A DNA stretch of 64,000 nucleotides from Thermoanaerobaculia bacterium (lineage in GTDB: Bacteria; Acidobacteriota; Thermoanaerobaculia; UBA5066), in the NCBI GenBank assembly GCA_963719225.1, contig CAVRAY010000001.1, forward strand, positions 2,304,001 to 2,368,000. Reading direction: 5' to 3'. The translations under genes and the position numbers were made by a program. The notes beneath the pieces were generated by a model that was not told where the DNA came from, did no database searches, and worked only from the letters and a program-made list of their open reading frames with translations. This document shows, in pieces, positions 49,175 through 63,251 of this stretch (positions are counted from its first letter, which is position 1; each line of letters begins with the position of its first letter).

Positions 49175-49669
49175 CTACGCAACCACCTCCGCAAGCACCT
49201 CGCCGAGCGTCACGCGCTGCCCCTCGGCGACGAACAGCTCCGTCACCGTCCCCTCGTGCGGCGCGGCAATCGGGTTCTCCATCTTCATTGCCTCGACGAG
49301 GAGGAGGACCTGACCGGCGCTCACGTAGGCGCCGCGCTCGACGAAGAGGCGCGTGATCACGCCGGGGATCGGGGCCTTCACGCGACCGTCGCCGCTCGCG
49401 GGCCTCGTGCCGGCGCTGTCGAGGTCGCGCACCTCGAGCGGGAAGTAGCCGGCCGCGGACCGCACCCACCTGAGCCCGGTGTCGAAGAGCGCCTCCACGG
49501 GACGGCCCTCGACGACGACGACGCCGAACGAACCCGAGGCGTGCTGGCGCGGCGAGAGCAGGACCTGCTCGCCGTCGACGGTCACGAAGGGCTCGTCCGA
49601 TGCGATCTGGCGCTGATCGAGCTCGACCGTGTAGGTCCGTTCTTCGAGCGTCACCGCGATCCGTCTCAT
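49175..49669 (-). CDS. biotin carboxyl carrier protein
   Basis: VKAPIPG...VEAMKMEN, ATG 49669. Confidence 0.9.
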   Translation of the reverse strand: MRRIAVTLEERTYTVELDQRQIASDEPFVTVDGEQVLLSPRQHASGSFGVVVVEGRPVEALFDTGLRWVRSAAGYFPLEVRDLDSAGTRPASGDGRVKAPIPGVITRLFVERGAYVSAGQVLLLVEAMKMENPIAAPHEGTVTELFVAEGQRVTLGEVLAEVVA

Positions 49670-49685
49670 GTCGTTGCGCCTTTTC

Positions 49686-51179
49686 TCACGGGACCCGGCG
49701 GCTCTCGCGGAACCATCCGGTGAGCGCTTCCTCGGGCAGCTCGGGTTTGAAGTCGAGGTGGTGACGGACGTACGCGAGCGCCGCGGCGACGGCGAGGTCG
49801 CGGCGGTGGCGCTCGTCCCCGTCTCCCCGGAGCAAAGCGGGCGAGAAGAACGAAGAGTCGTATTCGCCGGCGCGAAAGCGGGGATCACGCACGAGCCTGA
49901 CGTGCAGGGACACGTCGTTCCCCACGCCGACGAACGTCATCTCGACGAGCGCCCGCGTGAGCCTGCGGACCGCGATCTCCCGCGTCTCGCCGCGGACCGC
50001 GACCGTCGCAAGCCCCGGATCGTAGGCTTCGGGCACGTCGGCGCCGGGCACGAGATGCGTGTCGGTGCGGACGTTCGGCCCTCCCGGGAGACGCATCCAC
50101 TGCACGCGCCCGGGTGAAGGCAGGAACCCGTGCCACGGGTCCTGGGCGTTGATGCGGCACTGGATGGAATGGCCGCGCGTCGCCGCCGCCTCCGTCAGCG
50201 ACGCATCGAGGAGCTCGCCCGCGGCCAGACGGAGCTGCCAGGAGACGAGATCGATCCCGGTCAGCATCTCGGTCACCACGTGCTCACGCTGGAGCCGGGG
50301 TTTGATCTCGGTGAAGAGGAACCGTCCGTCCGGCAGCCCGAGAAACTCGACGGTGGAGGCGCCGCGACAACCGAACAGCCGCGTGAGCCGCCCGGCCTTC
50401 TCGTGGAGCTCGCGCCGGGCCGCGGAACCGAGCCACGGGGACGGGGACTCGTCGACCAGCTTCTGGTTTCCGCGCTGGACCGAGCCCTCGCGCTCTCCCA
50501 GCACGGCGATCTCTCCGGCTTCGTCGGCGAGGACCTGGACGCCAAGGACATGGACGCGGCGGAAATAGCGCTCGAGGAAGACCCGGCGGTTGCCGTAGTT
50601 GAGCTCGGTCTGCTCCTGGGCACCTCTGAACGCCTCGACGAACTGCTCCGGCTTGCGCACGAGGCGCATGCCCCGGCCGCGCCCGCCACGGGTCGACTTC
50701 ACGAGGAGCGGGTAGCCGAAGCGGGCCGCGTCCTCCTCCGCCGCCTTCTGCTGCCCCTCGTCGTAGGACCTCGGCGAATGCTCGGGCGTCTCGAAGCCCG
50801 CTGCCTCTGCCGAGCGCATCGCGCCGACCTTGTCCGAGACCGCCGAGAGCGCCGTCGAATCGGGCCCGACGAATCGGATTCCCGCCGTCTCGCAGAGCCT
50901 GACGAAACGCGAGTTCTCGGCAAAGTAGCCGTAGCCGGGGTGGACGGCGTCGCAGCCGCGCGCCTTCGCGATCGCGAGCAGTTGCTCCGCGTCGCGGTAG
51001 CCGAGCGGGCCGGTGAGCTCGGCACACCCGTCGGCGAGCCGGACGGCAAGGGCCTCCCGCTCGAGAGGCTCGTACACGGCAACCGACGAGAGTCCGAGGT
51101 CGCGGCAGGTCCGGAGGACGCGCACGGCGACTTCGCCCCGGTTGGCCACGAGAACGCGCCGGAACGCGCCCGAGCTCAT
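49686..51179 (-). CDS. accC: biotin carboxylase subunit
   Basis: [53 protein letters not shown]. Confidence 0.85.
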
Positions 51180-61607: not shown

Positions 61608-61617
61608 GCTCTTCCCT

Positions 61618-63251
61618 CTAGCCGCCGCGAACGCCTCGACGAGCCCTCTGGCGACCACGTCCATATCGGCGATCAAGCCGGTCTGCGCCTGATAGAGCGC
61701 CGGCGAGGTTGAGTGCCGACGCGAGATCGGGTCGGTTTGCCCCGCGCCGATCGTCCAGCGCAGCCCGTCGAGGCGACCTTGAGGCCGCTTCGCGGGCGAA
61801 AATGCGGGCCAGCGCCTGGCGCGGCGGATATCCAGCGGGATCGCTTCGGTCGGTTTCTGACGACGCGCTCGGCGAAGACCGCCGCCCCTTCGGCATAGGC
61901 GATCAGCTCGCCCAGCCGGAACAGGACGTGCTGGCTGCGCGTCAGCCGGTCGAGCCGGCAGCGCTCGAAGAACGCGCCAGCGCGCGCATCGCCAGCGCCG
62001 CGAAGCGGAGCGCCCGTTGTCCGGCTCGAGCTGCCGCTCTGCGCTCGAGCCGCGCCGCCCAGTCGTTGTAATATGCGCCGCGCGTCTTCAGGTGGAGCTG
62101 CCAGCGGTCGCGCGCAATCGTCCACTCCATGATCTCGGACGTGCCTTCGTAGATCGTCGTGATGCGCACGTCGCGCTTGATCTTCTCGACCATGTATTCT
62201 TTGGTGTAGCCGTAGCCGCCGTGACGCCTGAATGGCGTCTTCGGCCGCTTTGTTGCCGGCCTCGGTCGCCAGATATTTGGCGACTGCGCCTTCGGTCGCC
62301 AGATCCTGTTCGCCGCCGTCGAGCCGCTCCGCCACCCATTCGATGTAGGTGCGCGCCGCTTCCAGCCGCGCGGCATTGGGCACGATCAGCTTATGGGTGT
62401 AGCCCTGTTTCTTGCTGAGGGGCCCGCCTGCCTGCACGCGCTCCTGCGAGTAGCGGATCGCGCGGCGCAGCGCTTCCCAGCCCGCGCCCAGACCGAACGC
62501 GCCGACCATCAGGCGGGTGTAGCCGAAGACGGCCTGCGCCTGCGCCAGACCCTGCCCTTCGACGCAGCCAACCAGCCGATCCGGCGTGACGAACACATCT
62601 TCGAGAAACAGCGCCGCCGTGTTGCTGGCGCGGATGCCATGCTTGTCTTCCGGCTTGCCCTGCGTGAATCCGGGCTGTCCCGCTCGACGATGAACCACGA
62701 CGGACCGCCCGGCGCGAGCGCCAGAATCGTGTACAGGTCGGCGACGCCGCCGTTGCTGATCCACTGCTTGCGCCCGGTGATCTTGTACCCGGTCAGCTGC
62801 CCGTCTTCGAGCACGGGGACGGCTTTGGTCGTCAGCGACGCCAGATCGCTGCCAGCCTGAGGCTCGGTCGCGCCGTAGGCGACCAGCAGCGACTCGTCGG
62901 CGAGCCGCCTCATCCAGTCGACTTCTGCTCCGGCGTCGCGCCGACGGTGATCGGGTCGGTTCCGAGGAACGTCGCCAGCACGCCGGTCGCAATGCCGAGG
63001 TCGATGGCGGCCATGACCTCGGAGACGCGATAAATGTCATGCGCTCCGCCGCCGAGCCCTCCGGCCTCTTCAGGAATAAAGAGGAGATGGAGACCGATCT
63101 GCGACGGGTCGTACAGATCTTTCAGGGTTTTCGCCGGGAAGGCATCTTCTTGATCGAGCTTCAAAAGGAAGGCAGGCGTGAGCTCCCGTTCCGCGTAATC
63201 GCGCACCGTCGACAGGAGCATCTCGAGCACGTCGGTATCGAGCCGCGGCAT
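61618..63251 (-). CDS. acyl-CoA dehydrogenase family protein with C-terminal extension; multiple frameshifts
   Basis: [69 protein letters not shown]. Confidence 0.88.

Follow-up and report, generated by a model that had tools for sequence, protein, structure and literature searches.

A fixed acyl-CoA dehydrogenase partner, and candidate enoyl reductase, of Type R PfaA-like lipid synthases

Results

A six-gene lipid operon in a Thermoanaerobaculia genome

A 64,000-nucleotide window of a Thermoanaerobaculia genome (the host; contig CAVRAY010000001.1, positions 2,304,001 to 2,368,000) contains a lipid operon led by a gene for an acyl-CoA dehydrogenase (ACAD). The operon consists of six co-oriented minus-strand genes between positions 63251 and 49175 (Table 1). 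The ACAD gene is followed by genes for a megasynthase with ketosynthase (KS), acyltransferase (AT), acyl carrier protein (ACP), ketoreductase (KR), and dehydratase (DH) domains, a phosphopantetheinyl transferase (PPTase), and the carboxyltransferase (CT), biotin carboxylase (BC), and biotin carboxyl carrier protein (BCCP) of a carboxylase. The first-pass annotation of the window described these genes as co-oriented and tightly spaced, and this layout was borne out: all six genes and both ATGA overlaps, at 53503-53500 and 51179-51176, can be read in the sequence.

Table 1. Positions of the operon genes, synthase domains, and atypical core stretch in the window. ER, enoyl reductase.
Feature	Position	Strand	Remarks
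ACAD gene	63251-61618	minus	Pfam ACAD N, M, and C domains on ORF pieces; 8 frameshifts
Megasynthase KS1-AT-KS2-ACP-ACP-KR-DH	61607-53500	minus	46 frameshifts; no ER, no thioesterase domain
AT domain	58930-59790	minus	GHSLG and HAFH motifs
KS2	57200-58531	minus	NAACAS, SHETFTP, and KGFTGH motifs; Cys, His, Lys, and His all retained
Two tandem ACPs	56080-56650	minus	LGIDTVKQ motif
PPTase	53503-~52780	minus	Start overlaps synthase stop (ATGA); 1 frameshift
PccB/MmdA-type CT	~52754-51176	minus	81% identity to intact homologue; 10 frameshifts
BC	51179-49686	minus	Intact; E-x-K-x-R replaces the usual E-x-N-x-R
BCCP	49669-49175	minus	EAMKM motif; intact
Core stretch with Chloroflexota-like composition and nearest relatives	~54300-62850		Borders inside the ACAD and DH coding sequences

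The synthase has no enoyl reductase

The domain order of the synthase is encoded in intact homologues by one ORF of about 2640-3220 amino acids (stop to stop). A family scan of the 28 ORF pieces of the operon detected no ER, PfaD, FabI, or FabK family, in agreement with the first-pass annotation, and the piece carrying the KR matched only generic short-chain dehydrogenase/reductase (SDR) models. No ER family was detected in an intact homologue of 2634 amino acids. The window gene (61597-53511) aligns with residues 28-2758 of an intact homologue, which leaves no room for an ER. Polishing would not reveal a hidden ER, since the frameshift-aware alignment spans the window gene from end to end; the intact homologues are without one. 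The last ACP and the KR are separated by 307-351 residues in 35 of the 37 intact homologues, those in which both motifs were found, a gap that would be about the size of the structural half of the KR alone. Division of the synthase into two genes at an apparent stop near 58720 was rejected, as the 37 loci show a single ORF from KS1 to DH.

The catalytic residues of the synthase are conserved. All 37 one-ORF loci keep the Cys-His-His of both KS domains, the AT Ser and HAFH motif, the Ser-Tyr-Asn of the KR, and the DH His; the DH Glu is kept in 36 of them. The extender unit is likely malonyl-CoA because the AT carries HAFH, the motif of malonyl-type ATs. With KR and DH intact and the ER absent, an enoyl-ACP would be formed in each round.

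The synthase resembles PfaA, scoring 875 bits with the TIGR02813 model, below its cut-off of 1010. The polyunsaturated fatty acid (PUFA) synthases PfaA-E (Types A/B) share with it the PfaA-like KS-AT, tandem ACPs, a KR, two KS per system, and a PPTase. They differ in that the present system has no PfaD, no PfaB AT, and no FabA-type DH/isomerase pair, and places its second KS between AT and ACP within one chain. A closer likeness is to Type R of the 2011 catalogue of Shulse and Allen, which that paper describes as one PfaA homologue with the order KS-MAT-CLF-ACP(3-6)-KR, a PPTase downstream, and sometimes an acetyl-CoA carboxylase (ACC) gene (PMC3098273). The same paper places Type R in Roseiflexus castenholzii, RS-1, Ca. 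Solibacter, Ca. Koribacter, and Elusimicrobium minutum and leaves its product unassigned (PMC3098273). Shared features are the single PfaA homologue, the KS-MAT-(second KS-like)-ACPn-KR order, the downstream PPTase, the lack of an ER or pfaD, and the frequent ACC (PMC3098273), and the synthase appears to be of this already catalogued kind. The window KS2 is 82% identical to that of a Roseiflexus sp. locus.

The differences from the catalogue lie in the second KS, the DH, and the ACPs. In the 2011 paper the second KS is labeled a CLF and no DH appears, whereas the synthase here keeps the Cys-His-His and has a DH. Judging from conservation of these residues in all 37 homologues, the 'CLF' is probably an active KS, and the DH appears to have been overlooked. 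The paper gives 3-6 ACPs, compared with two in the window copy. Homologues carry 1-6 copies (3-6 in 31 of 37), and the 2011 range is narrower than that of the family because 6 of the 37 have only 1-2.

An ACAD accompanies every synthase examined

The first-pass annotation suggested that the ACAD may act on ACP-bound chains, as the missing enoyl reductase or as a desaturase, and that a lack of synteny would speak against this; in the informative loci described next the two genes are syntenic. Synthase loci (80) were fetched from species-representative genomes of Chloroflexota, Acidobacteriota, Myxococcota, and others. The ACAD gene lies directly upstream in all 67 with at least 300 nt before KS1. 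In the reverse direction, 80 metagenome loci were found via the ACAD, and KS1 directly follows it in 57 of the 57 with at least 700 nt downstream. All 50 carrier genomes have an ACAD orthologue, and no further ACAD in them scores above E 1e-75. In one Chloroflexota class of 161 genomes, 17 have the synthase and 19 the ACAD, and all 17 are shared; one of the two extra genomes has KS1-AT adjacent to the ACAD up to the contig end, and in the other the contig ends 169 nt past the ACAD. Two genomes hold two orthologue copies (L070 and L071; G061), and both copies have a synthase in G074. The ACAD of the Roseiflexus sp. locus falls in a 90% identity cluster that includes R. castenholzii Rcas_2878 (ABU58940.1) and ABQ91272.1 of an unclassified Roseiflexus, presumably strain RS-1. 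Inspection of 32 upstream stretches by eye, without a motif search, showed no shared DNA motif.

The ACAD family occurs in 57 of 301 genomes of the host's class (G025 among the genomes searched). The host itself gave no match in this search because of its frameshifts. Twenty class loci were fetched, and the seven closer ones have the synthase adjacent; a more distant branch stands alone and is weighed in the Discussion. Every synthase examined has the ACAD, and not every ACAD of the wider family has a synthase.

The reading we favor is that the ACAD reduces the enoyl-ACP of the Type R synthase in each round with electrons delivered by electron-transfer flavoprotein (ETF). From the gene content and residues compared here we give this a slightly better than even chance, with a probability of about 0.55.

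Properties of the ACAD

The ACAD belongs to a clade of about 545 amino acids with a C-terminal helical extension, and the window copy is 76% identical to an intact homologue over residues 4-543. The traits of the superfamily are present: N, middle, and C domains, FAD-binding motifs, and the catalytic Glu, which the window shows within IYEGTS and which (as Glu369) occurs in 55 of 55 correct-frame rows. The family numbers at least 7913 clusters at 90% identity (7913 of 8000 scored reach E 1e-120). Of the 19 matching NCBIfam models (AcrC, FadE, RedW, and others), none reached its cut-off; the top match, acryloyl-CoA reductase AcrC, scored 241 bits where the cut-off is 640 and indicates likeness only, and the RedW and PigA models gave 157 and 127 bits. 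Bcd and CarC are among the PDB matches, with about 33% identity. A model of homologue L035 (pLDDT 90.4) matched 3owa, 2z1q, and 7s7g best (TM 0.78-0.81), and the predicted fold is like that of the dimeric VLCAD/FadE type. The alignment (A1) behind this and the docking models included one wrong-frame or truncated row, L077.

Two positions distinguish the clade from ordinary ACADs. Position 244, which has a role in CoA adenine binding, is Gly in the clade and Asp or Asn in 10 of 12 ordinary ACADs. Position 275 is Gly or Ala in the clade and Phe or Trp in 11 of the 12; it also splits the family, being Gly/Ala in the synthase-linked members (55/55 and 7/7) and Phe (10) or Met (3) in the stand-alone ones. 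The ACAD modeled with the synthase ACP gave a score of 0.45, compared with 0.00 for the best of three controls, with contact agreement among runs of at least 81% and a partner pLDDT of at least 82. Of 157 solved complexes, 116 reach the docking mark, as do 2 of 215 mismatched pairs; those that reach it at or below 0.60 are only 18 of the 157 and both mismatches.

An alternative suited to the VLCAD/FadE-type fold is that the ACAD acts on free acyl-CoA, either recycling stored lipid by beta-oxidation or preparing a CoA starter or carboxylase substrate, and that its link to the synthase is regulatory only. Isovaleryl-CoA dehydrogenase, for instance, supplies methylcrotonyl-CoA carboxylase. The stand-alone ACADs of genomes without a synthase and the ETF genes adjacent to the ACAD in 8 of 40 upstream regions agree with this idea. 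However, no hydratase, hydroxyacyl-CoA dehydrogenase, or thiolase recurs beside the ACAD, and two genomes (G085 and G089) carry a separate, ordinary FadE-type ACAD gene of 598 amino acids. Many loci lack the carboxylase or have another in its place, but the ACAD is always there, and Gly occupies the position of the usual Asp or Asn at 244. We regard action on free acyl-CoA as improbable.

Electron supply and storage-lipid genes

Genes for a membrane Fe-S oxidoreductase (CCG and 4Fe-4S), EtfB, EtfA, and the ACAD are contiguous in 5 of 40 upstream regions, with 5-19 nt between the run and the ACAD gene. The five genomes (G083, G084, G085, G089, and G090) are titled Terriglobia, Ca. Sulfotelmatobacter, or Acidobacteriota. 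The Fe-S protein is a putative ETF:menaquinone oxidoreductase, and menaquinol, at about -74 mV, could drive reduction of an enoyl thioester, at about -10 mV. In three further genomes EtfAB genes lie with a different ACAD gene 0.5 kb upstream. The five adjacencies and the weak ACAD-ACP model are consistent with an ACAD that works on chains tethered to the carrier. ETF and the Fe-S protein were rejected as core parts of the cluster, as they adjoin it in only 5 of 40 genome and 0 of 47 metagenome loci. In the host the EtfB, EtfA, and Fe-S homologues lie together at C1:1116082-1122126, away from the operon.

Among the 62 metagenome loci that extend 1.3 kb or more upstream of the ACAD, 26 have FabH immediately before it, and the two scanned were both over the cut-off. 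This adjacency is an anabolic context; the loci are probably largely of one lineage.

Storage-lipid genes recur near the system. In G085 and G089, AdhE and a wax ester synthase/diacylglycerol acyltransferase (WS/DGAT) precede the Fe-S-ETF run, with a PhaR-type regulator nearby; the AdhE of G085 is over its NCBIfam cut-off. WS/DGAT occurs in the flanks of 7 of 41 genomes. Within the Chloroflexota class it is found in 14 of 19 carriers compared with 12 of 142 non-carriers (Fisher p 1.5e-9, the genomes being kin and not independent). The complete order can be followed in L141:2945-14996 with L094 (G085) and in L145 (G089): FadE-type ACAD, AdhE, WS/DGAT, Fe-S, EtfBA, ACAD, synthase, fused ACC, and PPTase. 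A conserved gene of about 340 amino acids is located near this run in both genomes.

These neighbors bear on a second alternative, in which enoyl reduction is omitted, the synthase makes a conjugated polyene like the enediyne synthases (PKSE), and the ACAD merely tailors the product. PKSEs have the order KS-AT-ACP-KR-DH without an ER, with one KS, one ACP, a fused PPTase, and a cognate hot-dog thioesterase. The synthase here has the same ER-less KR-DH ending, in every intact homologue, but differs in its two KS, tandem ACPs, and separate PPTase and in having no recurring thioesterase. No thioesterase recurs among the neighbors in three or more genomes, save an alpha/beta hydrolase near WS/DGAT in three. 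The tandem ACPs, the likeness to PfaA, and the storage-lipid neighbors suit fatty chains better, and a polyene product is very unlikely.

Fatty acid synthesis genes in the host and other carriers

The first-pass annotation raised the question whether carriers lack the type II fatty acid synthesis (FAS II) genes. The host and most carriers keep them. In the host, FabZ and two copies of FabF exceed their cut-offs, FabG is present, and motifs of FabH and AcpP can be read. Its enoyl reductase is less evident, with no match at FabI level, a best FabK match of 140 bits against a cut-off of 453, and no FabV match in a search whose positive control also gave none. Two FabL-like SDRs are encoded on C2 (194946-195692 and 623976-624722; 133 and 119 bits against a cut-off of 328). 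Each stands beside a similar second SDR, which suggests a duplicated block.

A FabZ match is present in 25 of the 50 carriers and a FabI-level match in 32; 16 of the 17 Anaerolineae-class carriers have FabF. A FabZ match is missing from 23 of 30 Chloroflexota carriers. Reading this as loss of FAS II by carriers was rejected, as missing FabZ is common to carriers and non-carriers alike: in the class of G048 (the 161 genomes above), FabZ exceeds the TIGR01750 cut-off in 0 of 161 and FabF its cut-off in 155 of 161. The proposal of an alternative fatty acid route thus holds only for a secondary route and is not supported for a replacement. The Type R synthase and ACAD are a second route beside FAS II.

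Housekeeping reductases enter a third alternative. The ACAD would oxidize synthase-bound or starter chains by alpha,beta-desaturation and pass the electrons to ETF and quinone, with enoyl reduction left to a housekeeping reductase or skipped. MbtN, FkbI, and RedW/PigA are carrier-acting ACAD relatives that oxidize. The linkage data and the weak docking fit this alternative equally well, and the FabI-level genes of the 32 carriers are consistent with it. An ETF-Fe-S chain is the normal oxidative exit of ACADs, as described in PMC12855090. On the other hand, an alpha,beta-desaturase would duplicate the enoyl-ACP that intact KR and DH domains already make, a FabI-level match is missing from 18 of the 50 carriers and from the host, and the association with WS/DGAT points to reduced chains. 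We consider an oxidizing ACAD unlikely, and reduction of the enoyl-ACP by the ACAD remains the favored reading.

The linked carboxylase is accessory

The PccB-type carboxylase, regarded in the first-pass annotation as a dedicated part of the system, is not fixed. Fifty loci extend 3.5 kb past the DH: 26 have PPTase, CT, and BC, 12 have PPTase only, 7 have a fused BC-BCCP-CT, and 5 have other arrangements. The carboxylase is accessory because it is absent or replaced in so many of them. Lys replaces Asn in the E-x-N-x-R motif of the BC in the window, in 25 of 26 operon copies, and in 10 of 10 near homologues, whereas all 7 fused enzymes and both housekeeping BCs compared keep Asn. The operon BC branch may have altered chemistry or be a weak enzyme. 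In the same branch His236 is mostly Asn and Glu211 is variable (E. coli numbering). In L099:14843-20476 and related Acidobacteriota loci a fused 1878-amino acid BC-BCCP-ACC_central-CT directly follows the synthase, similar in layout to eukaryotic ACC1.

Condition and origin of the window copy

Frameshift-aware alignment with intact homologues placed about 65 frameshifts in the ACAD, synthase, PPTase, and CT genes (distributed as in Table 1) and none in BC, BCCP, or a control pair; no in-frame stops were found in the operon copy by this alignment. A decayed pseudogene is the less likely reading, given so many frameshifts without one in-frame stop and a similarly broken core in L293. The frameshifts look more like consensus errors than pseudogene decay. 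L293 (G482:C2:955000-974999, a long-contig genome of the host's family) has ACAD-KS1-AT-KS2 in many frames, an intact KR-DH, and native composition.

The core of the operon looks Chloroflexota-derived. Its CTC+GAG density (54300-62900) is 27.0/kb, compared with a genome mean of 51.6 (sd 5.2), and 1 of 592 8-kb windows is as low; this measure was picked after inspecting four. An order-4 Markov score shows only a small dip over the core. Chloroflexota loci have 19-31 per kb, compared with 45-69 in loci from the family of the host. At its ends (ACAD start, DH end, and PPTase) the cluster matches Thermoanaerobaculia-type loci best. For KS2 such loci rank 41st and 44th of 80, KS2 falls outside their supported clade, and its best protein match (94% identity) is labeled Anaerolineae. 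The host FabF is 79-81% identical to those of Thermoanaerobaculia-type genomes and 56% to a Chloroflexota one.

The copy thus appears to be a mosaic, either a consensus overwritten by another organism's reads or a real recombinant, and we lean toward the overwritten consensus. KS2 was not found in any of the 40 relatives searched, 24 of them of the same genus (38 relatives without the unpublished G025 and G030). Within the host's family, 10 of 27 genomes gave an ACAD match, compared with 0 of 16 in its genus. The layout of the operon is independent of the mosaic question because all six genes recur in unchanged order in G431 (L296), a genome of that family.

Two further genes flank the operon. 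A GH94/glucoamylase gene on the plus strand (40881-49132), presumably cyclic beta-1,2-glucan synthase-like, converges on it and is broken into several frames in its 3' part. A divergently transcribed ORF of 161 amino acids (63417-63902, plus) has a signal peptide-like start and short His-rich repeats, with no Pfam or NCBIfam match.

Discussion

The proposed cycle would begin with priming of the synthase ACPs by the PPTase. The AT would load malonyl-CoA from the linked carboxylase or housekeeping ACC, KS1 and KS2 would share initiation and elongation, and KR followed by DH would yield trans-2-enoyl-ACP. The ACAD, acting in trans, would reduce this synthase-bound chain with electrons that pass from the quinol pool through the membrane Fe-S oxidoreductase and ETF. 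The outcome would be saturated chains that in many carriers go to neutral storage lipid, alongside FAS II. In this host the ETF and Fe-S genes are elsewhere on the contig, and no WS/DGAT match was found.

Several observations weigh against the ACAD as enoyl-ACP reductase. ACADs are reversible, and direction is unreadable from sequence. The carrier-acting relative CaeB1 oxidizes (10.1101/2020.12.07.415471), and ETF with the Fe-S protein is also the route by which ACADs ordinarily pass on electrons when they oxidize. Support from the docking model is weak. Adjacency of ETF/Fe-S genes is lineage-specific: none of the 47 metagenome loci that reach 3 kb or more upstream shows it, no match to any of these references occurs in 28 of 40 genome flanks, and an Fe-S homologue at E 1e-70 is present in 31 of 50 carriers and missing from 19. 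A WS/DGAT match is missing from 5 of the 19 carriers of the Chloroflexota class and from the host, whose genome is 97% complete. The FabI-level gene of 32 carriers could in principle act in trans.

The stand-alone branch of the ACAD family also counts against this reading. Its members, from two other families of the host's class, share 45-54% identity, and 13 of 13 loci have no synthase within the 20 kb fetched; a KS2 match was found in none of five genomes of the branch. No lipid gene lies beside the ACAD in five loci (53 of 119 ORFs scanned), and no FAS II genes in the loci examined. FabI-level matches occur in two of the five genomes, the other three giving 147-162 bits only. The stand-alone ACADs nest inside the family beside synthase-linked members from Myxococcota (FastTree support 0.92-0.98; row L086, a wrong-frame or truncated translation, was left out of the tree). 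Gly244 was rejected as a marker of ACP use, as all 13 have it, and it is no marker of synthase partnership because the stand-alone branch keeps it. The branch (L277-L289, families f8 and f5) occurs in 32 of 47 f8 genomes, in a fixed neighborhood of transporters and priA-like genes. The stand-alone ACAD of f8 might serve FAS II; three f8 genomes are without a FabI-level match.

Known ACADs offer partial parallels. AcrC, Bcd, and CarC are enzymes of about 380 amino acids that act on short CoA esters with an NADH-dependent bifurcating ETF. AcrC, Bcd-EtfAB, and CarCDE share with the clade the ACAD fold and the catalytic Glu at the MCAD position. They differ from it in that the clade is of about 545 amino acids and any linked ETF genes stand next to one for a membrane Fe-S protein. 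CaeB1 shares a flavoprotein gene beside an assembly line and a tethered substrate; ACADs of the CaeB1 type differ in that all oxidize, and their sequence likeness to the clade is low. We know of no carrier-dependent trans-acting ACAD that works as an enoyl-ACP reductase.

There is a precedent with CoA thioesters (PMC6587861). In the wax ester fermentation of Euglena, enoyl-CoA is reduced by an ACAD with ETF and rhodoquinone, and this fermentation and the branched-chain enoyl-CoA reduction of Ascaris share with the proposed system the ACAD as reductase, ETF, and a low-potential quinone. The product is stored as wax ester in Euglena (PMC6587861), and the gene set of G085 and G089 is of the same logic. 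The eukaryotic systems differ in using CoA thioesters and reversed beta-oxidation in mitochondria, compared with the predicted ACP-bound chains and malonyl-CoA extension here. A broader extrapolation is tentative, and we judge it rather less than evenly likely: the ACAD family would be an enoyl-ACP reductase class driven by respiratory quinol via ETF, and the Type R synthase a terminal electron sink that makes storage lipid under low oxygen, a carrier-bound bacterial counterpart of the Euglena fermentation.

The kind of synthase was known. We found neither its fixed ACAD partner nor the reductase reading in print within the literature in reach, which left out most subscription papers; the 2011 catalogue was the only relevant paper, and its main text nowhere uses the word 'dehydrogenase' (PMC3098273). 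No product of Type R has become known since that catalogue, and KR and DH domains without an ER do not allow a synthase to make saturated chains alone. The fixed ACAD partner is a concrete answer that is testable in cultured strains (R. castenholzii Rcas_2878). If the ACAD oxidizes instead, a missing part of a common orphan pathway is still defined. If it is the reductase, a new class of enzyme would join FabI, FabK, FabL, FabV, and the PKS-type ER, and lipid synthesis would be coupled to the respiratory chain rather than to NAD(P)H. It would also offer a reason why abundant Chloroflexota and Acidobacteriota of soil and wastewater store neutral lipid.

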